A stretch of DNA of 64,000 nt from Escherichia virus TH38: sequence record MT446410.1. One strand, written 5' to 3'. The notes beneath the pieces are model-generated. The model worked only from the letters and a program-made list of their open reading frames with translations, was not told the DNA's origin and did not search any database. Positions 2,640 through 63,806 of the stretch are shown piece after piece. How positions within the stretch are numbered: position 1 is the first letter of the stretch; each line of letters opens with the position of its first letter. Made by a program: the position numbers and the translations under genes.

Positions 2640-3152
2640 ATGGCAATGCCAGATTTCAGAGGAGCTTTTACATATAACCCAAATACAGGGCATCTTTTCT
2701 GGTCTATGAGTAATATATTCAATAAACAGAAAGGGCAACGTGCTGGATGTATTAATAATAAGGGATATCGTGTACTAACCTTCAAGAAGAAATCATACCT
2801 AGAGCACAGGGTCATAGCTGAACTCTTTCTTCCTAAAGTAGAAGGGAAGGACTATGTCAACCATAAGAATGGAATAAAAGATGACAACAGGATTGAGAAT
2901 CTAGAGTGGTGTACTCAACAAGAAAACTGTGTACATGCTTATGAAACAAAACTCTCAACACCAAGGAATCTTGAGGATAACCCTAATTCCAAGCTTACTA
3001 AAGAACAAGTTCTTTTCTGTTTAGAGAACTATAAACCGAGGGACAGACAGTTCGGAGCTAGAGCTTTAGCTAGGAAGTTTGGAGTCTCTTCAAGTACAAT
3101 AAGCCTGATAATCAATGGCACAAACTGGAAGGAGGTATCCTATGTTGCCTGA
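2640..3152 (+). CDS. HNH homing endonuclease (HNH_3-type)
   Basis: Motifs GYRVL, YLEHRVIAE, VNHKNGIKDDNRIENLEW; RBS aaggagg; inserted between capsid and tail genes. Confidence 0.8.
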   Translation: MAMPDFRGAFTYNPNTGHLFWSMSNIFNKQKGQRAGCINNKGYRVLTFKKKSYLEHRVIAELFLPKVEGKDYVNHKNGIKDDNRIENLEWCTQQENCVHAYETKLSTPRNLEDNPNSKLTKEQVLFCLENYKPRDRQFGARALARKFGVSSSTISLIINGTNWKEVSYVA

Positions 3153-8910: not shown

Positions 8911-8982
8911 TTAGTAGTAAGTACCCTTAGTAAGTAATGAAACTAATATATCCCAAGAGGTTAATTTATAGGAGACACTCAA

Positions 8983-9201
8983 ATGAAAATGATGAAACAA
9001 GCTGTATATGGTTTAGTTTGTTTAGGTGCAGGAGTCGTGGTATCTACTGCAATCCCTGTAAGCGCAGTTCATCCATTAGTTACAGCACCTGCTCCAGTAG
9101 AGAAACTTAGTTCTCAATGTAAGCAGCGAACCATTCAAAATAATCTAGTTGTTATTTGTCCTGATGCTGAATCTAACGCTCTGAGAAAGATACTACCTTA
9201 A
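8983..9201 (+). CDS. small exported/membrane protein (signal-peptide-like N-terminus)
   Basis: 72 aa; hydrophobic N-terminus AVYGLVCLGAGVVVSTAIPVSA; RBS ataggag; immediately upstream of lysozyme. Confidence 0.4.
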   Translation: MKMMKQAVYGLVCLGAGVVVSTAIPVSAVHPLVTAPAPVEKLSSQCKQRTIQNNLVVICPDAESNALRKILP

Positions 9202-9230
9202 TTTAAAGGGACCACAAAAGGAGGTTAGAA

Positions 9231-9722
9231 ATGGATAACGCCGCATTGCCACCTGTACAACTAAACTTAAGCCCAGCTGGAATGGAATTCATCATGAAGC
9301 ATGAGGGTATGAGAACCAAGGCTTATAAAGATTCCGCAGGTATCTGGACTATATGTGTAGGGGCTACGCGCGATATGAATGGTTATCCGGTTAGACAAGG
9401 ATTAACGTATTCTATAGAGGATTGTCTAGCTCTGCTAGATAGAGACACACAAGACTCTGTTCGTGCTACTCAGAAGAACATAAAGGTTCCTTTACTAGTT
9501 CATGAGTTTGATGCACTCACTTCTTTCAACTTCAACGTTGGCAGTGGTGCTTTGAGCACATCTAAGTTAAGGAAAGTAATCAATGGAGATGTTAAGGGGG
9601 ATGTTTATTCCGAATTTCTTCGTTGGGATAAAATAACGGTCAAGGGAGAGAAGCAGAGAAGTCAGGGTCTTCATAATAGAAGAGTTGCAGAAGCTAATCT
9701 TTACACCGAAGGTAAATATTAA
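9231..9722 (+). CDS. lysozyme (GH24, T4/lambda-R-like muramidase)
   Basis: EGMRTKAYKDSAGIWTICVGAT catalytic region typical of phage GH24 lysozymes; RBS aaaggagg. Confidence 0.8.
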   Translation: MDNAALPPVQLNLSPAGMEFIMKHEGMRTKAYKDSAGIWTICVGATRDMNGYPVRQGLTYSIEDCLALLDRDTQDSVRATQKNIKVPLLVHEFDALTSFNFNVGSGALSTSKLRKVINGDVKGDVYSEFLRWDKITVKGEKQRSQGLHNRRVAEANLYTEGKY

Positions 9723-15622: not shown

Positions 15623-16405
15623 ATGGCAATTAAAATGGGTATTGAAGAACTAGACCCAATGGTTCAACAGGCTTCAAAGAAGTATGGGATTCCTGCTGCT
15701 TTGATTCATGCTGTAATCCAAAGGGAGTCTAGTGGTCGTCCTACAGTGGCTTCTGGAACTGGTCCTGTAGGTTTAATGCAGATCAGTAAAGGGTTGGCTA
15801 AAGACTATGGTTATAAGCTGGAAGATAGACTTGACCCAGCAAAGAATATCGATATGGGTGCTCGTTACATAAGAGATAACCTGAAAGCTTTCAATGGTGA
15901 TGTTAAGAAGGCAATGGTAGGTTACTCAGAAGGAACCGGTGGTGCTAAACAAATGTTCGCTGGTAAGAAAGGGTTTACTCCACAAGCTCTTGACTCCATG
16001 AACAATAAACACTTTCTTCCTTTCTACGGTGATGCAGCTTCTCAGATTGCTAACCCTATTGGAGCTTTGCAAGCTGTTCAACCAGTCAACCAATTTAGTC
16101 CTGATACTCTTGATAGAGAGAAGGCTGCTCAAGCTCCAACTCAGGCAGAAATTGCTGCTTCTAAGACTGGTGCTTTAGGTGGTAATCCAGTAGAGTTTTA
16201 CTCTGATGAAGTGCAGGAAGGGGAAGATCAGAAGCCTCAGCAGAACTTTGGTAATGCAGTATTAGGAGTAGCTGCTATGCTTGCTGGTAAACCTCCTACT
16301 TCTCAAACAGTTCAGAGGGCAAGTGCACCACATGCAGCAGGTTCTCAGTACAGTCCACAAACACAAGCAGTGCTCAGGCGTTTGGCTAGCATTGGTATAA
16401 AGTAA
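15623..16405 (+). CDS. lytic transglycosylase (SLT domain) virion protein
   Basis: IHAVIQRESSGRPTVASGTGPVGLMQI...MGARYI motif set of SLT domain. Confidence 0.8.
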   Translation: MAIKMGIEELDPMVQQASKKYGIPAALIHAVIQRESSGRPTVASGTGPVGLMQISKGLAKDYGYKLEDRLDPAKNIDMGARYIRDNLKAFNGDVKKAMVGYSEGTGGAKQMFAGKKGFTPQALDSMNNKHFLPFYGDAASQIANPIGALQAVQPVNQFSPDTLDREKAAQAPTQAEIAASKTGALGGNPVEFYSDEVQEGEDQKPQQNFGNAVLGVAAMLAGKPPTSQTVQRASAPHAAGSQYSPQTQAVLRRLASIGIK

Positions 16406-20141: not shown

Positions 20142-20150
20142 TAATGTATA
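20142..20150 (+). promoter_or_regulatory. TAATGTATA promoter motif
   Basis: Exact 9-mer 38 nt upstream of ATG 20189. Confidence 0.4.
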
Positions 20151-20188
20151 TAGGGGGTAGGACATTTTTATTTATAAAAGGAGACGTT

Positions 20189-23100
20189 ATGGCTAACATT
20201 AAACCGTGGGAAGAAGCTTCCAAAGCTCCTGCGTATCTGAATGCCTCTCCGGAGCAACAAGCTCAAATGAGAGAACAATATAAGGCAGCAGGTGGCTCTA
20301 TTCCTGAGGAACAACCAGTAGCACAACCACAACAAGAAGAACGTGGTGCTATAGGTGAGTTTGCTCAAGGTGTGTCAAATGCTCTTCAATCTGGTGGTGC
20401 AAATATTGCAGCTAGTGCTGCTAAAGGTATTGGTGGTTTAGTTGAGATTGGTGAGAATCTAGCTGGAGCACAAACTAGTTATGGTAAGCGTATCCAAGAG
20501 AACTCTCAGAACCTTCTGAAAGAACGTATGGATAAGATTGAGGATGGGATTGGTAAAACTGTCGGTCAGTATGCTGGCGTTGCTGGTGATATCGGTTTGA
20601 CAGTTGCTAACCCATTGGCTGCTGCTGCTATCATCGCAGGTCGTGAGACAGGTCGTGCATATGCAGACCAAACCCCTGAAGAGGGAGAAGATAAGTCTAT
20701 TCTAGATGCAGCCTTAGTTGGTGGTGCTAACTATGCGGCTCAGAGAATCCTTCCAGGTGCTGTCGGTACAGCTGAGTCCACACTTGGACGTATTGGTCAG
20801 AACGTTGCTAGTAACGCAGTGGCTGGTGCTAAAGGTGGTGCTCTTGTGGGTGCTGCTGAAGCTCAGAATAAGCACGGAGATGACACAACCTTTGCCAATG
20901 TATTAGAAGGTGCTATCGAAGAAGGTGCTATGGGTGCTGCATTCGGTGGTGCAGTTGGTGGGGTTCATGGTTTGATTAGCCGTCCGGATTCTGCTGTCTT
21001 CAAGAATACTCCAGAGTATGCGAAGACTGATATTGCTGCTGATGATGAACTAATTCGTAGTGCTAAGAATATTGATGAACTGAAAGAAGCTTACTCTAAA
21101 GCTGAAACTGCTAACGCTGCTTCTGCTCTTAACCTTCTGGATGAGAATGGATTCCGTATTACAGATGCTGTTGCTGTAGATTCTCCTGCTGCTCAGCGTA
21201 TTCTTAATACTGACCAAGTTCGTGCTGAGAAAGCTGCTTCTGTTCAGAAAGAACATTCCAACATTCCGGGCCTTAATCCTTTAGCTTCTCCTGCTAAGAC
21301 TCGTGGTAAAGCATTTGCTGATAATGAGCACAACCAGAAGCAGGCTGTTGCTATGAAGGATGCAATGGCTGACTACACCAAAGACAACACGAAAGCTCTT
21401 ACAGATGTTCTAGATAACCTAGACCGTGAATTAACTTCTCTCCGAGCTTCTGGTGATTTTACTGGTAGTCCGATTGATATTAAGAATCGTACACAAGCTG
21501 ACCGTGATTTCATTGATGCTTACAAGACTTTCTACAATGAAGCAAATCGATTCAAAGCTCGTGAAGGTGAAGATTTTAATAACTTTGTAGAGAAAGCTAC
21601 TGAACTACAGAAGATGGCTGATAATGTTTCTCCAGAGATGAAGAAAGCTATCGGTGGGTTGAAGAAACTGAAAGGTATGCCTGAAGGTTTTAATCCTATT
21701 CAAGATGCTTACACTCTGAACAATACAGCTAAATTCATGAGCAACCAAGATCGTGGTTGGACTTCCTTGACTGATGATGGATTCCGTGAGGCTTCTTCTC
21801 CTAGTCTGGTGATGAACACTCTCGGTGCTGCTAAATATGCTCTGAATCGCTTCTCTTCTCAGCGTGCCCGTTCTCAACGTGTTAAGCAACAAGAGTCTAA
21901 TAGTGAAGCTATCCGCTCTCTGGCTCGTGGTGATTTGGAAGTTGCTCGTGCTAAATCTACTGCTGATGAAGCTCGTGCTAAGATGGAAGAAGAACCAGTT
22001 GTTGATGACATTAAATTTAAGACGCAAAATGACGTGGAAACCGAACCGGTTCGGGAGCCTTCTTCTAGTACTGTGACGGAAGAAAATCTTCCTTCTTCTA
22101 CTCCTCAAGAAACCCCTCTCACAGCTCGTGATTTAGTTGCGCAAAGACGCGCTATCCGTCAGGCTGAACAGCGTCGCGCTGAAGAAGAGGCAGCAGCAGC
22201 TCAAGAAGCTCCGGTCGAACAAGCTCCACAGGCTGAACCTCTCCCTGCTCGTAACCCTCTAGAGGAGCGTCGTGCAATGGAACAGCAACGTGCTCAAGAA
22301 GAGGCCGCACAGGCTCCAGAACCAACCGTAGAGGAACCAACAGTCAAAGCTGAGCCATTACCTGCTCGTGCTCCTAAAGCTCCTAAGGAAGCTGTACAGG
22401 ACGTTAAACCGGCAAGTGGTGTAGAACGTTTAGCTGCTATGTCTAGTGCTGCTCGTCAGGCTACTAAAGATCGTGCAGAACGCTTTGCTCGTTCTCTGTA
22501 CTCTAAGGCTGCTAAAGCTAAAGCTACTGCTGAAAACTTCTTGGCTTATAAAGGCGATCCTAAGGAACTGATGCGTCGTATTCGTCAGGAAGATAATGCT
22601 ATCAACACTGAACGTCATGAAGAAATGGCTCGTAACCAGCTGGCCTCTCAGCAAGGTATTGCTACTGCTAAGAACAACACTGTACGAACTAATTTTGCTG
22701 AATGGGTTAAAGAACGTGGTCTGCCAGAAGACATTGCTACTAAGGCATTACGTGCTGAAGAGAAAGGTTTAGGTGGGAACGTAACTAACTTGGATAGTCT
22801 GAAACGTCGTGCTGAAAGGTTGTATCAGAAGCAGCGTGAGGATGAGTTTGATAGACTGTACCAACAAGCTCTAGAAGAGAACAAAGCTTTCGATAAGAAA
22901 GATGCTCCTAAACTGGTTGATCAGAAGAAAGAGCTTCAGTCTGAGATTGATGCTTTGATTGATTCAGAACCTTTACGTCCTGCTCAGAAAGATGCTATGC
23001 GTAAGCTGATGAATGACTTTGTAGATGGGAAGTTTAAATCTTCAGAGAAGGCTGGTAGGGAAGAGGCTTTGGAAGTTGGTCAGATGAAGGATATTTGGGA

Positions 23101-24610
23101 TGGGTTTATTAACACCTACAACAGAGAAGTGAATGCCTTCAACAAAGCTAACAAGAACTCTCAGTACGAAGCTGCTGCTAAGCACTTACAGGCTCGTGAA
23201 GAACGTCTTGCTACTCTGAAAAACAAAGCTCAGGCTCGTTCAGATGCTAAGGCTGCTGTTGAGAATGAACGTAAAACTCTAGAGGCTATTGCAGCTCAGA
23301 AGAGTGAGATTGAGAAGATGATGGAAGGTTTACCTAAACCTGTTCGTGAGGCTCAGGAATCTCGTACATTGAAACAGTTGGCTGCTCACCATGACAAGAA
23401 CTCTCCAGTTCCTCCAGAGAAGTTCCGTAGTTACATTGAACGTATCCACAACGCCGAGTCAGATTACCTTGATCGTCAGCGTCGTTTAACTGATGCAGAG
23501 GAAGATGCTCGTCAGGCCAAGTGGAACAAGATGTATGAGCAAGCGGAAGAAATGAACCGTAAGTTTGATGTGGACAAGAGAGTTAAGCGCAGTGAAGAGC
23601 TTAAAGCGGCCCAAGAGCGTGAGAATGACCTTATGGCAGTACAACGTCAACGTGATGACATTCATCGCCGCCTGATGCGTACTATGGAAGATAAGGGCAT
23701 ATCTAGAGAGGATGCTGAAGCATTTGCTGGTTCCTATATGGATAACCGTTATGCACTTCTTGAGAAGCCTATGACTCCTACTGAACATCAGAATGCTCGT
23801 TCTCGTATCGAAGCTGATGTTGAGAAGTTTGCTAAGAAGTATGAATCAATGACCCCTATCGAGAAAGAGATTGTTAAGGTTACTGGAGATACTGAAGGTA
23901 AGCTTGATAACTTGGATGCGGATACCAGGAAGGCTATTGAGGAGGCTCAGAAGGTTGACTCTGATATTAAGAAACTGCAAGAGGAAGAGTTGGAGATGGA
24001 GAAGATTCGTTCTGCTCTGCCTGATGATGAAAGATCTCAAGCAAATTCTGATATCTTGGAAAGCATTAAACAACAGGAAGAGGTCTTTGCTGATAAAGTA
24101 GAGAAAGCTTTCTTGAGTGGGAAAAGCTTGGATGAGTTGGTTAGTGTGGCTGAAGTTTTAGACAGGGTTCATGGTGCAGATAAGGCTGGTAACAACCGTC
24201 GCTTTGTACGTGCATTGCAGACTGCTGCTGAAAACAAGAAGAAGTATGGTGATAATCCAGTAGCTTGGTTTAGTGCTGATGATTACTCTGCCATTGCTAA
24301 ACTTGGTGCTTCTTCCGCAGGTGGTAACAAATCCAGAGCACTGGAGAAAATCTTTGGTTCTACAGCTGAACAGGCTAAGAGTAAGTTGCTTGGTAGGGAT
24401 GATGTAGCGAAGATGAGACGTGTAATTGAAGAGAACCCTGATATTAAGATTCCTTCTTACAAGACAACCAATCGTACTGAGTACTTGCAGTTCTTGGAGA
24501 AGTTTAATGACGAAGGGAAGCCGAAGATTAAACGTGGCTCATTGTCAGAGAAGCTTGAACGCAGTAAGCGTCAATCGAGACTCCGTGTAAGAGTTCGACC
24601 TAAGGAGTGA
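20189..24610 (+). CDS. giant internal virion / ejection-type protein
   Basis: Start moved to ATG 20189 with RBS aaaggag; ~1473 aa, E/K/A/R-rich coiled coil with short repeats (AEPLPAR x2); last gene of + block. Confidence 0.55.
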   Translation: MANIKPWEEASKAPAYLNASPEQQAQMREQYKAAGGSIPEEQPVAQPQQEERGAIGEFAQGVSNALQSGGANIAASAAKGIGGLVEIGENLAGAQTSYGKRIQENSQNLLKERMDKIEDGIGKTVGQYAGVAGDIGLTVANPLAAAAIIAGRETGRAYADQTPEEGEDKSILDAALVGGANYAAQRILPGAVGTAESTLGRIGQNVASNAVAGAKGGALVGAAEAQNKHGDDTTFANVLEGAIEEGAMGAAFGGAVGGVHGLISRPDSAVFKNTPEYAKTDIAADDELIRSAKNIDELKEAYSKAETANAASALNLLDENGFRITDAVAVDSPAAQRILNTDQVRAEKAASVQKEHSNIPGLNPLASPAKTRGKAFADNEHNQKQAVAMKDAMADYTKDNTKALTDVLDNLDRELTSLRASGDFTGSPIDIKNRTQADRDFIDAYKTFYNEANRFKAREGEDFNNFVEKATELQKMADNVSPEMKKAIGGLKKLKGMPEGFNPIQDAYTLNNTAKFMSNQDRGWTSLTDDGFREASSPSLVMNTLGAAKYALNRFSSQRARSQRVKQQESNSEAIRSLARGDLEVARAKSTADEARAKMEEEPVVDDIKFKTQNDVETEPVREPSSSTVTEENLPSSTPQETPLTARDLVAQRRAIRQAEQRRAEEEAAAAQEAPVEQAPQAEPLPARNPLEERRAMEQQRAQEEAAQAPEPTVEEPTVKAEPLPARAPKAPKEAVQDVKPASGVERLAAMSSAARQATKDRAERFARSLYSKAAKAKATAENFLAYKGDPKELMRRIRQEDNAINTERHEEMARNQLASQQGIATAKNNTVRTNFAEWVKERGLPEDIATKALRAEEKGLGGNVTNLDSLKRRAERLYQKQREDEFDRLYQQALEENKAFDKKDAPKLVDQKKELQSEIDALIDSEPLRPAQKDAMRKLMNDFVDGKFKSSEKAGREEALEVGQMKDIWDGFINTYNREVNAFNKANKNSQYEAAAKHLQAREERLATLKNKAQARSDAKAAVENERKTLEAIAAQKSEIEKMMEGLPKPVREAQESRTLKQLAAHHDKNSPVPPEKFRSYIERIHNAESDYLDRQRRLTDAEEDARQAKWNKMYEQAEEMNRKFDVDKRVKRSEELKAAQERENDLMAVQRQRDDIHRRLMRTMEDKGISREDAEAFAGSYMDNRYALLEKPMTPTEHQNARSRIEADVEKFAKKYESMTPIEKEIVKVTGDTEGKLDNLDADTRKAIEEAQKVDSDIKKLQEEELEMEKIRSALPDDERSQANSDILESIKQQEEVFADKVEKAFLSGKSLDELVSVAEVLDRVHGADKAGNNRRFVRALQTAAENKKKYGDNPVAWFSADDYSAIAKLGASSAGGNKSRALEKIFGSTAEQAKSKLLGRDDVAKMRRVIEENPDIKIPSYKTTNRTEYLQFLEKFNDEGKPKIKRGSLSEKLERSKRQSRLRVRVRPKE

Positions 24611-27193: not shown

Positions 27194-28679
<1,486 letters not shown>

Positions 28680-28680
<1 letters not shown>

Positions 28681-28940
28681 TATTTTATTCCACGCTCTTT
28701 CAGAGCTTCTAACAATCCATTGTGATTAGCAGCACATTCTGTGTACTGGTCCTGATACCACTCCAACGTAGTGGCTAGTGCCTTTCCTTGAGCACTCTCT
28801 AAAAGAGGTAGGTCAACCCTACATTCAGCTTTTAGGTTTGTTGGTAAGGGCATTGATTGCCTGCTGTTGTCGCTCATTGAACAAGCTGACATACTCATCA
28901 CTAGCGCAGACATTATAAAAAACTGGTTTAGTTTTCTCAT
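28680..28940 (-). CDS. o-spanin-like lipoprotein
   Basis: Start at internal ATG (MRKLNQFFIMSALVMSMSAC...) with signal peptide and Cys; start lies inside 3' end of the i-spanin-like ORF. Confidence 0.45.
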
Positions 28941-29175
28941 AATGCATCTCTTTATAAACGGTTTCCGTGTTCTTCTTCCAGTTAGATATACCGGTAAGAA
29001 CCCTCTGAGCAACTTCATCAGCTGCCCTACTTCTTTCAATCTCTAACTCTTGCTGGTGCTTCTCTTTGTCCAGATTACTGCTATCTGTTCTGTACTCATT
29101 AAACTTCATACCACCAAAGAATACAAGAGCTGAGAAGATAACAAATCCTAGATTATCACTTAAAGTGCTTTGCAT
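28825..29175 (-). CDS. i-spanin-like protein
   Basis: N-terminal TM (LGFVIFSALVFFGG) plus charged coiled-coil; start set to ATG 29175 after terminator. Confidence 0.45.
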   Translation of the reverse strand: MQSTLSDNLGFVIFSALVFFGGMKFNEYRTDSSNLDKEKHQQELEIERSRAADEVAQRVLTGISNWKKNTETVYKEMHYEKTKPVFYNVCASDEYVSLFNERQQQAINALTNKPKS

Positions 29176-29188
29176 ATTGACTCCAACG

Positions 29189-29211
29189 AAAAAAGCCACC
29201 CGGAGGTGGCT
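29189..29211 (-). terminator. rho-independent terminator (- strand) after SSB gene
   Basis: AGCCACC-TCCG-GGTGGCT followed by TTTTT on - strand. Confidence 0.65.
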
Positions 29212-29232: not shown

Positions 29233-29979
29233 TTAGAATGGGCTATCGTTGTCGTCTTCGTAAGTAGAAGCAGGCTCTTTATCAATCGTAGGGATTGAAG
29301 GAGTAGCTTCTTTCTGCTCTGTTTCAGAAGCACGAGTAATTTCACGACCAGCCAGAGGCATGTTCTTAGCGTCATTAGCTTGAGTAAGCAGGTTGCGCTG
29401 GAACGGGAACATCAGTTGATAGGATGCTACGTTCTCATCGGTTTCAGCATACGGTTCGAAGAATACCAGAGGACTACGAGCTTCACCAACTGCTGCACGA
29501 TATTTGGTTGGGATTGGAGAAATGGTCTTGATGGAGTTTTTAACTTCACCAGCTTTGTTAGTGTAAGAGTTAACCAGAATGTTAACAGGCTGACCTAACA
29601 GAACATCCTTGAACCAAGACAGATCACCTTTCAGTGCTTGAATACTTGGGTCAATCATCTTGCAAAGATCAAGAATACCAGAGTTCTTAGCTCGTGGGTT
29701 TACATCATAGCTCTTGAACTGGCAAGCCGGACGTGGTTCTAATGCCTTACCATCGGAATCTTTACCAGTAGCATCAACACCAATCAGCTCGAAAGCTAAA
29801 TCCATACGGAAAGCCGGATTCTTAGGAGTTACTGCTTTGGTCTTCGGGTCAATCCAAGGGTCACGATTGTGAACACCCAAACCTACCACACGAACGATAC
29901 GTGCTTCGTATTCACCATCAGGGATTACATCGTAGTTGGATTTACGGGAAGCAGTTGCGATAGTTGGAATCATAGACAT
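29233..29979 (-). CDS. ssDNA-binding protein (T7 gp2.5-like)
   Basis: 248 aa with acidic C-terminal tail ending ...EDDNDSPF (terminal Phe), hallmark of gp2.5-type SSBs. Confidence 0.55.
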   Translation of the reverse strand: MSMIPTIATASRKSNYDVIPDGEYEARIVRVVGLGVHNRDPWIDPKTKAVTPKNPAFRMDLAFELIGVDATGKDSDGKALEPRPACQFKSYDVNPRAKNSGILDLCKMIDPSIQALKGDLSWFKDVLLGQPVNILVNSYTNKAGEVKNSIKTISPIPTKYRAAVGEARSPLVFFEPYAETDENVASYQLMFPFQRNLLTQANDAKNMPLAGREITRASETEQKEATPSIPTIDKEPASTYEDDNDSPF

Positions 29980-30038: not shown

Positions 30039-30047
30039 TATACATTA
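30039..30047 (-). promoter_or_regulatory. TAATGTATA promoter motif (- strand)
   Basis: Exact motif on - strand upstream of SSB operon. Confidence 0.35.
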
Positions 30048-30110: not shown

Positions 30111-30119
30111 TAATGTATA
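30111..30119 (+). promoter_or_regulatory. TAATGTATA promoter motif (+ strand, divergent)
   Basis: Exact motif on + strand in same intergenic region, pointing away from SSB gene. Confidence 0.35.
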
Positions 30120-39955: not shown

Positions 39956-40135
39956 TTATGCAGTCAAGAGGTGAAGCAGGAACGGGATAACAACAGCTAC
40001 GATAACCATGATAGTTGATGCTGTTTGAATCTCACCTTTCTTATCAGGAGTTTCTTCAATAAGCTTACCAGAAGCCCAATAAATACCACCACCAATAAAG
40101 ATAGCCCAAATACCCCATACGATTGCTGATAACAT
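39956..40135 (-). CDS. small two-TM membrane protein (59 aa)
   Basis: By-eye ORF MLSAIVWGIWAIFIGGGIYWASGKL...MVIVAVVIPFLLHLL; RBS aagga. Confidence 0.4.
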   Translation of the reverse strand: MLSAIVWGIWAIFIGGGIYWASGKLIEETPDKKGEIQTASTIMVIVAVVIPFLLHLLTA

Positions 40136-58621: not shown

Positions 58622-58879
58622 TTACTTAAAGATAAAATGCATAACTGCGTCATATGCTTTAAACAGAAGCCAACCTATTGGATAAAAAACTCCTGCCAGT
58701 ATTGAGATAGGCCACAACACAATTAAGAGCACAACCATCATCTCATCAGGTTCAGAGCTGGTAGACCCTGTTGTAATGACCCCTTTTAGTAGACCTTTCT
58801 TGTATAGCAGTTTCAGCACTAAAACAGAAAGGAATACTCCAATAAAGTAAACTGAGATAAAAATATCAAGTAAACCCAT
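58622..58879 (-). CDS. small membrane protein (2 TM)
   Basis: Hydrophobic segments FISVYFIGVFLSVLVLKLL and VVLLIVLWPISILAGVF. Confidence 0.45.
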   Translation of the reverse strand: MGLLDIFISVYFIGVFLSVLVLKLLYKKGLLKGVITTGSTSSEPDEMMVVLLIVLWPISILAGVFYPIGWLLFKAYDAVMHFIFK

Positions 58880-59862: not shown

Positions 59863-60162
59863 TTACCACTCCTTACCGGTTGTTGTTACAGAACCGCCAC
59901 ACCACAACGCTGTATCGATCACAACATTGTCTGGCGTAGACTTCTCTTCGTTGATAGAAGGGTTAGCATTAGAGCAGGTTGCCCCGTTGTAGCGCATATC
60001 AATATCACCACTAGGAATCTTGTTTCCTGAATGCCAGCGAGATACACAAATACCATCCACTGCTACTGCACACCACCCATCAGGGCGGCTCTGTACGCAG
60101 CCTGTAAGGGCCACACAGACAAGGAAGATACAGATTAAGGATATTACACCACCCCAACTCAT
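59863..60162 (-). CDS. Cys-rich lipoprotein
   Basis: Signal peptide with lipobox LTGC (ISLICIFLVCVALTGC); 99 aa. Confidence 0.5.
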   Translation of the reverse strand: MSWGGVISLICIFLVCVALTGCVQSRPDGWCAVAVDGICVSRWHSGNKIPSGDIDMRYNGATCSNANPSINEEKSTPDNVVIDTALWCGGSVTTTGKEW

Positions 60163-63294: not shown

Positions 63295-63544
63295 CTTTAG
63301 CCTCTATGTTGGTTATATGGAGATCACTGCGTACTTGGCAAACTTCATCCCGTTTAAAAGGCATGAGCTTTCCAGTTACCACATCAACACAGTTGACATA
63401 ATTGTCTGCGTACAATGTGTCGGTTCTGATGTAAAGGGATTCTTTACGCTCAAACAGAACCCCCGGCTTCATGTTATTTAATCGAAGCATTGTACGATCA
63501 GATTTAATATTAACTTTCACTGTTAATCTCCTGCTGCTTAGCAA
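63284..63544 (-). CDS. small protein, GDVF-family-like paralog
   Basis: MKPGVLFER motif (divergent). Confidence 0.35.
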   Translation of the reverse strand: MLSSRRLTVKVNIKSDRTMLRLNNMKPGVLFERKESLYIRTDTLYADNYVNCVDVVTGKLMPFKRDEVCQVRSDLHITNIEAKDED

Positions 63545-63806
63545 TAGCTACTCGCAAGTCTTCATTAGCACGAGCAAGTCGTAATACTTCATGGTTGAGG
63601 TTCTGAAGACGCTCATTTCTGTCTTCAACTTGCATAATAAGATCATTAAGTGTTACTTTAACTTTCTCATTATACATCTCATCCACTCGGACTAGAGATT
63701 TATACATTCTCTCCCAGCTTGCTGCTTTGTTTCTGAGAACAATAAACCCTATAACGCTGATAGTTAAACAGCTTACAAAAAGGAATTTATATACCTCTAA
63801 AGTCAT
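63510..63806 (-). CDS. small membrane-anchored coiled-coil protein
   Basis: N-terminal TM (FLFVSCLTISVIGFIVL) followed by charged helix. Confidence 0.4.
   Translation of the reverse strand: MTLEVYKFLFVSCLTISVIGFIVLRNKAASWERMYKSLVRVDEMYNEKVKVTLNDLIMQVEDRNERLQNLNHEVLRLARANEDLRVAIAKQQEINSES

Follow-up and report, generated by a model that had tools for sequence, protein, structure and literature searches.

A probable Rz/Rz1-type spanin gene pair of overlapped architecture, distant from the holin–endolysin genes, in a Kuravirus genome

Gene content of the spanin locus

Two overlapping genes on the minus strand, at 28680–29175 of the window (the whole 64,000-nt stretch of Escherichia virus TH38 DNA analysed here), encode a predicted i-spanin and a predicted o-spanin. 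They belong to a leftward run of genes whose features, in the order of reading, are as follows:

30039..30047, minus strand: gp36-sigma promoter element TAATGTATA, exact match, at the position of P40 in phiEco32
29233..29979, minus strand: gene for a 248-aa protein, phi32_40 homologue, presumed first gene of the transcription unit (gene order)
29194..29211, minus strand: intrinsic-terminator-like hairpin and T-run between the gene 40 homologue and the i-spanin gene
28825..29175, minus strand: predicted i-spanin gene, phi32_39 homologue (ORF, PHROG 1152, family alignment and AF2 model)
28825..28940, minus strand: 116-nt dual-coding stretch shared by the end of the i-spanin gene and the start of the o-spanin gene, +1 frame offset
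28680..28940, minus strand: predicted o-spanin gene, full-length form of phi32_38 (lipobox ORF, relatives, phage Paul gp035, Kongari 2018)
28240..28680, minus strand: Macro-domain gene, phi32_37 homologue, whose ATG overlaps the o-spanin stop (TAATG)
27573..28220, minus strand: phage sigma factor gene, phi32_36 homologue, downstream in the leftward run (gene order)

The DNA derives from a Kuravirus, i.e., a phiEco32/SU10-like coliphage (~97% nucleotide identity). The 4 kb around the spanin locus share 96–97% nucleotide identity with Escherichia phages FS2B, SU10, DE5, and MN03; in this comparison, 98 records matched in total, almost all from coliphages. The two closest annotated RefSeq records retrieved, those of MN03 and SU10, assign both phages to the genus Kuravirus of the Gordonclarkvirinae. 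The gene order matches that of phiEco32 one-to-one, and two distant relatives from metagenomes also keep the synteny. Late structural genes, read rightward, extend up to about 24.6 kb, and a leftward block of middle and early genes makes up the rest; a GC-skew switch near 24 kb fits this change of direction.

The i-spanin gene product

The i-spanin ORF runs from an ATG at 29175 to a stop at 28825 on the minus strand and encodes 116 residues. A hydrophobic stretch, LGFVIFSALVFFGGM, is located near the N-terminus (residues 9–23) and forms the single predicted N-terminal transmembrane domain (TMD) that is typical of i-spanins. It reaches a value of 1.9 in a 17-residue Kyte–Doolittle window; it is short, with about 15 residues, and falls below the threshold of 1.6 in a 19-residue scan. 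In the phage Paul record, the corresponding TMD is placed at residues 8–23 by TMpred, with a score of 1694. The AF2 model, of moderate confidence (mean pLDDT of 63), consists of a helix (residues 3–77), a break (78–92), and a second helix (93–111). The break coincides with the best-conserved motif of the family, a KPxFYNxC linker that includes the invariant Cys90. The putative periplasmic domain is therefore mainly α-helical in the predicted model, and the tables of Kongari 2018, whose unlabelled columns are interpreted here, give a helix content of about 61% for the phiEco32 i-spanin and contain no coiled-coil entry for it. The locus had been described from its sequence as encoding a TM segment plus a coiled coil; the TM segment was recovered at residues 9–23, but only a high helix content is supported in place of the coiled coil.

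The assignment of the protein is based on its match to PHROG 1152, annotated as “Rz-like spanin” (E = 1.7e-36), the same label that RefSeq gives to the homologues in phiEco32 (phi32_39), SU10, and MN03. It shares 94.8% amino acid identity with the phiEco32 protein. Searching PDB sequences with a profile of the i-spanin returned nothing meaningful (best E of 0.27), and no Pfam model matched either the i-spanin or the o-spanin.

The N-terminal tail, MQSTLSDN, contains no Lys or Arg and carries a net charge of −1, and K24 and R29 come after the TMD; thus, a naive positive-inside rule does not favor an N-in/C-out orientation. The same remark on the charge of the N-tail is made for NJ01 in a table of Kongari 2018, and one K or R is present in the N-tail of relatives. 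We infer an N-in/C-out topology with a periplasmic C-terminal domain because of the predicted lipoprotein partner and the invariant Cys90, not because of charge rules.

A hydropathy screen of the small ORFs in the window revealed no other spanin candidate. A 98-aa ORF with a TMD and a helix (63510–63806) was considered as a second i-spanin and rejected, as it belongs to a different PHROG and has no nearby lipobox ORF in the small-ORF screen.

The o-spanin gene product

The o-spanin ORF runs from an ATG at 28940 to a stop at 28680 on the minus strand, in the +1 frame relative to the i-spanin, and encodes 86 residues. Its N-terminus, MRKLNQFFIMSALVMSMSA/CSM, comprises a basic n-region and a hydrophobic core. 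Lipobox inspection, which had been proposed as a check of the original prediction, found the lipobox MSAC with Cys20 and Ser at position +2. A lipobox Cys without Asp at +2 predicts sorting to the outer membrane, as would be expected for an o-spanin. The mature part would comprise 67 residues, with further cysteines at positions 40 and 69. In agreement with these features, phage Paul gp035 is annotated as “o-spanin, SpII site 19/20” with a LipoP SpII score of 18.0, and the supplement of Kongari 2018 lists the phiEco32 o-spanin with 86 residues in total and 67 in the mature form. The window protein is 98.8% identical to that of phiEco32 at the amino acid level. It matches PHROG 2425, which is unannotated, and weakly PHROG 456, “Rz-like spanin” (E = 0.009). 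Predicted periplasmic cysteines that could form disulfides are present in both partners, Cys90 of the i-spanin and Cys69 of the o-spanin being invariant; Cys40 of the o-spanin is conserved within the Kuravirus-like group.

The RefSeq records of phiEco32, SU10, MN03, and KM01 give the o-spanin only 57 aa: the ORF called there begins at Met22, an internal residue, and is without the signal. Indeed, many RefSeq/GenBank Kuravirus records and a 2025 Kuravirus paper carry this signal-less miscall; the ORF should be called from the ATG at 28940 instead.

Conservation of the overlap

The 3′ end of the i-spanin gene and the 5′ end of the o-spanin gene share 116 nt, which makes the architecture overlapped and not embedded. 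This corrects the earlier wording of an “embedded/overlapping” lipoprotein gene, of which the second term (116 nt, +1 frame) holds and the first does not. An o-spanin gene that is embedded in, overlaps, or directly follows the i-spanin gene is the usual arrangement, and the second of these forms is found here.

A +1-frame lipobox ORF was present in all relatives examined, namely KBNP1711, SU7, KM01, two metagenomic contigs, and a Felixounavirus. Over the same colinear segment, the i-spanins of the two metagenomic contigs share just 52% and 68% identity. All these relatives retain the lipobox Cys, the Ser at +2, and Cys69. At the nucleotide level, the overlap was the most conserved of three segments in all seven comparisons. 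Among close relatives, it is 99–100% identical, compared with 91% and 96% in the flanking single-coding parts; the corresponding values are 94% versus 82/74% for KBNP1711, 80% versus 68/68% for L010, and 72% versus 55/62% for L009. Such a conservation peak is the pattern expected from dual coding, and the retention of a lipobox ORF in the frame overlapping the i-spanin is, judging from these alignments, far beyond chance.

KM01, SU7, and Bas86 carry an HNH endonuclease insert of about 540 nt within the overlap, at a point equivalent to ~28890 of the window. Both spanin ORFs remain intact: the i-spanin has a new C-terminal tip, and the o-spanin has a replacement lipoprotein signal, the coding sequence of which overlaps the 3′ end of the endonuclease gene. 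The insert thereby changes the architecture from overlapped to separated. In KM01 and SU7, it was considered as a group I intron, a reading that was rejected since the endonuclease ORF fills nearly all of the insert and no splicing is needed to complete either spanin ORF. Because the split loci of KM01 and SU7 acquired a replacement lipoprotein signal, this signal is under selection.

These data bear on the possibility that the 86-aa lipobox ORF arose in the alternative frame by chance and that only the 116-aa protein, perhaps together with the 57-aa RefSeq ORF, is real. The RefSeq calls for phiEco32, SU10, MN03, and KM01, which contain only the signal-less form, would agree with it. However, the start codon, basic n-region, lipobox Cys, and Ser at +2 are kept down to relatives with a 52%-identical i-spanin, the overlap is the slowest-evolving segment, the signal was replaced when the HNH cassette split the KM01/SU7 locus, and expert annotation (phage Paul, Kongari 2018) uses the 86-aa form. 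A chance ORF is thus scarcely credible, and the 86-residue reading of the o-spanin is used below.

Endolysin, putative holin, and other cell-wall genes

The remaining genes with a known or proposed connection to the cell wall or to lysis are located elsewhere in the window:

8983..9201, plus strand: gene for a 72-aa putative holin, phi32_16 homologue (Paul gp014); PHROG 11161 “holin”, E = 2.3e-48
9231..9722, plus strand: gene for a soluble GH24 endolysin, phi32_17 homologue; PF00959, E = 3.7e-32
15623..16405, plus strand: gene for an SLT lytic transglycosylase domain protein, phi32_22/SU10 gp20 homologue; PF01464, E = 4.5e-24
39956..40135, minus strand: 59-aa ORF with two predicted TMDs; PHROG 9296, unknown function
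58622..58879, minus strand: 85-aa ORF with two predicted TMDs; no match in the PHROG search

Residues 6–156 of the endolysin align to the PDB endolysin 8app, including the hEG/fEG motif. No hydrophobic segment emerged from a 19-residue Kyte–Doolittle scan of the protein, which is therefore predicted to lack a SAR or signal sequence. The protein therefore combines the fold, the catalytic Glu, and the lack of an N-terminal signal that characterize a canonical non-SAR GH24 endolysin. Since it is soluble and not of the SAR type, it needs a holin of the large-hole kind.

The original prediction named this gene as the only recognizable muramidase. Its PF00959/GH24 identity is clear, but the SLT domain (PF01464) at 15623–16405 had been overlooked. 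The SU10 homologue of the SLT protein, the ejection protein gp20, is credited in the SU10 structure paper with transglycosylase activity and with degrading cell-wall peptidoglycan during genome delivery (PMC9509320). This suggests that the SLT protein, rather than the GH24 lysozyme, may act as the entry enzyme.

As had been noted for the muramidase gene, it follows a gene for a small signal-peptide-like protein. This 72-aa ORF has one N-terminal hydrophobic segment (Kyte–Doolittle value of 2.13) and ends 29 nt before the endolysin start, i.e., it encodes a small TMD protein next to an endolysin, as a holin gene commonly does. The gene also directly precedes a PF00959 lysozyme gene in one distant relative (58–59% identity). 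The absence of a canonical holin was part of the original prediction; it must be qualified, because the gene at 8983–9201 is an annotated holin gene (phi32_16, Paul gp014, PHROG 11161), although this label derives from position alone and can be traced to a “putative holin”. The two ORFs with two TMDs that were put forward instead (39956–40135 and 58622–58879) both exist, but nothing supports a holin role for either of them. The genome papers of phages Paul and SU7 do not mention lysis genes. The site TAATTTATA at 8962–8970 was considered as a dedicated late holin promoter and rejected: it contains one mismatch to the promoter element, sites of this kind are about as common as expected by chance (19 observed, 18.6 expected), and the site is too near the ATG, as a start site 6–8 nt downstream would fall beyond the ribosome-binding site.

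The 72-aa protein is most likely a putative single-TMD holin. Its sequence also contains a PVSA/V signal-peptidase-like site, a Pro-rich linker, and an invariant C-x12-C segment, which could be read differently, namely as an exported and cleaved periplasmic peptide, e.g., a lysis regulator, with the true holin being a small TMD protein encoded in the early/middle block. The anatomy is that of a classic signal peptide, with MKMMKQ, an 18-residue hydrophobic core, and PVSA/V, in which P25, V26, and A28 are invariant. Its best-conserved part is the C-terminal CKQRTIQNNLVVICPD, for which a low-confidence AF2 model shows a hairpin bracketed by Cys46 and Cys59, suggesting an extracytoplasmic disulfide. 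The positional origin of the holin label, a literature search that found no experimental paper on the 72-aa holin, and the requirement of a soluble endolysin for a large-hole holin also agree with this reading. On the other hand, the gene directly precedes the endolysin gene in the window, in phiEco32 and Paul, and also in the single distant relative that was examined; Y9, G10, C13, and G17 are invariant within the hydrophobic segment, which is unusual for a mere signal peptide; and the alternatives with two TMDs lack annotation or supporting context. Moreover, the T4 holin T has a single TMD, an N-in/C-out topology, and a periplasmic domain with a disulfide. A periplasmic peptide with the holin encoded in the early/middle block is therefore rather unlikely. 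The fuller version, in which the protein is Sec-exported, processed by signal peptidase, and disulfide-stapled, with the GH24 endolysin released otherwise or via a holin elsewhere, appears quite unlikely; if true, it would, together with middle-expressed spanins, mean a lysis program organized quite differently from the lambda paradigm. The single-TMD holin is the reading retained in the following.

Genomic position and expression of the spanin genes

The holin and endolysin genes (8983–9722, plus strand) are part of the rightward late structural block, whereas the spanin genes (28680–29175, minus strand) lie in the leftward middle-gene block behind a middle-type promoter. The spanin pair and the GH24 endolysin gene are 18,958 bp apart on opposite strands, which bears out the contrast originally drawn between a spanin pair in the leftward middle block and a lysozyme in the late structural operon. 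The lysis genes are thus not adjacent within one late unit, as they would be in a lambda-type contiguous cassette. A general dispersal of lysis functions had also been proposed. The spanin genes are indeed far from the lysozyme gene; however, since the small protein upstream of the lysozyme is the annotated holin, the lysis genes form two clusters, holin–endolysin and spanins, and are not scattered singly.

The leftward cluster, with the DNA polymerase, nucleotide-metabolism genes, and sigma factor, is described as middle class in published work, and in SU10, CDS 25–68 are middle class, a range that includes the spanin homologues gp034/035. The assignment of genes 38/39 to the middle class is inferred from their position inside this cluster. 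Promoters dependent on gp36 (consensus tAATGTAtA) precede phiEco32 genes 6, 13, 26, 40, 58, and 68 (PMC8948821). The corresponding element of the window (30047–30039) lies about 60 nt upstream of the gene for the 248-aa gene 40 homologue. Between this gene and the i-spanin gene, the hairpin at 29211–29194 has a 7-bp GC-rich stem whose end lies 18 nt before the i-spanin ATG; the phage Paul record likewise carries an annotated terminator here. Because the gap between hairpin and ATG is too small for a promoter, the spanin genes are probably expressed by read-through. They would probably be transcribed from the P40-type promoter together with the Macro-domain and sigma genes, and probably at a level below that of gene 40.

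This setting raises the question of whether the pair forms an envelope-spanning complex with a main job other than lysis, such as superinfection exclusion or envelope remodeling, the outer membrane being disrupted otherwise. The location among middle genes, by a sigma factor gene and a Macro-domain gene and away from the lysis genes, would agree with such a role, as would the net negative N-terminus of the i-spanin and the lack of a listed coiled coil. In addition, all spanin labels throughout the phiEco32-type family are bioinformatic, and a literature search found no experimental study of this spanin family. Nevertheless, an overlapped +1-frame lipoprotein gene within the gene of a TMD protein is a hallmark of spanins and is kept as far as Felixounavirus, the 116-aa protein matches PHROG 1152, and the phage would otherwise lack a spanin, as judged from the hydropathy screen of small ORFs. 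Distance from the holin and endolysin genes is not decisive either, because the T4 spanin genes are likewise away from both (Kongari 2018, Fig. 8 legend). A main function outside lysis is accordingly very improbable.

Proposed function

Collectively, these features indicate that the locus very probably encodes an Rz/Rz1-type two-component spanin of a Kuravirus with an overlapped architecture. The ORFs, signals, conservation, and gene order were observed directly; the topology, complex formation, timing, and function outlined below are predictions.

By analogy with lambda and T4, the N-terminal TMD would hold the 116-aa product in the inner membrane, with the mostly helical domain reaching into the periplasm. 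The 86-aa product would be lipidated at Cys20 and sorted to the outer membrane, as Ser and not Asp occupies position +2, where it may bind the C-terminus of the i-spanin. The resulting complexes would bridge the periplasm and would probably be stabilized by intermolecular disulfides via Cys90 and Cys40/Cys69. They are expected to be inert while trapped in the peptidoglycan mesh; once the putative holin (8983–9201) lets the GH24 endolysin degrade the wall, the spanins could disrupt the outer membrane. Middle-class expression and separation from the holin–endolysin genes are likely tolerated because spanins are inert until peptidoglycan is degraded. The locus adds to the cases in which spanin genes do not have to share regulation with those for the holin and endolysin, in line with a model in which intact peptidoglycan keeps spanins inactive.

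Comparison with known systems

The closest counterpart is the phiEco32 pair gp39/gp38, also found in SU10, NJ01, and Paul, with the same genes, lengths (116/86 aa), 116-nt overlap, neighbors, and upstream terminator. Only point substitutions distinguish the window from phiEco32, e.g., R29 in the window versus Q, and nothing differs structurally. The supplementary tables of Kongari 2018 give the phiEco32 coordinates and list the pair as overlapped, with a 116-nt overlap and lengths of 116 and 86 aa. In the same work, the PhiEco32 i-spanin is placed in the overlapped family “JH2” together with Felix O1-like phages, and the o-spanin is grouped with those of NJ01, ECBP2, and KBNP1711. The phage Paul RefSeq record has the holin (gp014) and the endolysin (gp015) within the structural block and also annotates the o-spanin, the i-spanin, and the upstream terminator, and the 2025 Kuravirus paper lists the holin, endolysin, and o-spanin about 19 kb apart. 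Since Kongari 2018 and the phage Paul annotation record the same features, the existence of the spanin pair, the overlap of its genes, and their distance from the holin–endolysin genes are already known for phiEco32-like phages, and the finding is an ordinary one, with little significance beyond correct annotation.

Phages of the Felix O1 type have an i-spanin of the same family. In Felixounavirus BPS15Q2 (gp108/109), a 68-nt core shares 80% nucleotide identity with the window, a KPxFYNVC motif is kept, and the o-spanin gene is likewise overlapped in the +1 frame, with an MSGC lipobox. The Felixounavirus spanin genes also have non-structural neighbors: a PseT-like polynucleotide kinase gene is two genes away, and an rIIB gene four. 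Differences are present in the amino acid identity, which is only 24% (i-spanin) and 28% (o-spanin), in the o-spanin, which has no Cys40 equivalent, and in the phage itself, which is a myovirus.

The spanin genes of T4, PseT.3/PseT.2, are likewise not near those of the holin (t) or endolysin (e) (Kongari 2018, Fig. 8 legend). The products have similar sizes, 117/83 aa, and a predicted C-terminal helix of the o-spanin is listed as a further likeness, but the T4 architecture is separated.

A parallel to the KM01/SU7 insert is found between T5 and Shivani/phiR201, in which a homing-endonuclease gene lies between the spanin genes (Kongari 2018, section 11). In that case, only the C-terminal tip of the i-spanin and the signal peptide of the o-spanin are changed, as they are in KM01/SU7 relative to the window. 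The endonuclease is of the GIY-YIG type in the T5-type case and of the HNH type in KM01/SU7; the two are independent events in unrelated spanin families.

Distinctively, no sequence similarity to lambda Rz/Rz1 was detectable, the match to PHROG 456 reaching only E = 0.009. In lambda, Rz1 is fully embedded, and the Rz/Rz1 pair ends the contiguous S-R-Rz/Rz1 late cassette. The spanin genes of the window, in contrast, are overlapped and lie 19 kb from the endolysin gene, on the other strand, in the middle block.

Promoter elements and gene starts

Exact copies of the element TAATGTATA, recognized by the phage sigma factor gp36, and of the late-promoter element were located as follows:
20142-20150 (+), TAATGTATA, the equivalent of phiEco32 P26
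30039-30047 (-), TAATGTATA
30111-30119 (+), TAATGTATA
2598-2606, late-promoter element, just before the 170-aa ORF 2640-3152 (+)

The second and third copies are oppositely oriented and fall within 80 bp, in a 315-bp, AT-rich intergenic stretch that precedes the gene-40 homologue, and the plus-strand copy would be antisense in direction to the middle genes. The mechanical start of the 1488-aa gene (ORF 20144-24610) falls within the element at 20142-20150 (+). Since its phiEco32 counterpart, phi32_26, is 15 residues shorter, the true start codon is probably located ~15 codons downstream.

Small ORFs and their labels

The following small ORFs were considered:
2640-3152 (+), 170-aa ORF whose motifs (…NNKGYRV…HRVIAE…NHKNGIKDDN) look HNH-like, as judged by eye only
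8983-9201 (+), annotated holin
59863-60162 (-), 99-aa ORF of the early region, PHROG 4281, unknown function
63510-63806 (-), 98-aa ORF, TMD at the N-terminus (8-24) plus a long helix rich in heptads

The HNH-like ORF has an Ig-domain ORF (2026-2538) on one side and the gp13 homologue on the other. In phiEco32, this site carries no gene. In appearance, the annotated holin combines a Sec-type signal peptide with a Pro-rich linker and a C-x12-C hairpin; its PVSA|V site has invariant P25, V26, and A28, and the hairpin is nearly invariant. The holin label is based on position only, and no experimental test was found. The 99-aa ORF reads MSWGGVISLICIFLVCVALTGC|VQS..., in which LTGC resembles a lipobox and the mature part is rich in Cys; its product is a candidate early lipoprotein, possibly involved in superinfection exclusion. 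The 98-aa ORF is labeled "DNA helicase" (PHROG 12154), which looks implausible for a protein with these features.

The spanin overlap

The 86-aa o-spanin lipoprotein starts at a conserved ATG (28940), upstream of Met22:
28680-28940 (-), full-length o-spanin
28680-28853 (-), short call

In the RefSeq/GenBank records of phiEco32, SU10, MN03, and KM01, o-spanin is called as 57 aa from the internal Met22, without the signal peptide (short calls include phi32_38, ACQ52_gp034, and PQC56_gp043), and a 2025 paper gives the same short form, an "o-spanin" of 174 nt.

In KM01 (PV018827.1), SU7 (NC_070980.1), and Bas86, an HNH homing-endonuclease cassette of ~540 nt is inserted within the 116-nt spanin overlap, at a point corresponding in KM01 and SU7 to ~28888-28895 of the window. 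Both the i-spanin and o-spanin ORFs are intact in all three relatives: the C-terminal tip of i-spanin is replaced by a new one, and the 3′ end of the HNH gene is overlapped by a new o-spanin lipoprotein signal. This arrangement is an independent parallel to the GIY-YIG case of T5 versus Shivani (Kongari 2018).
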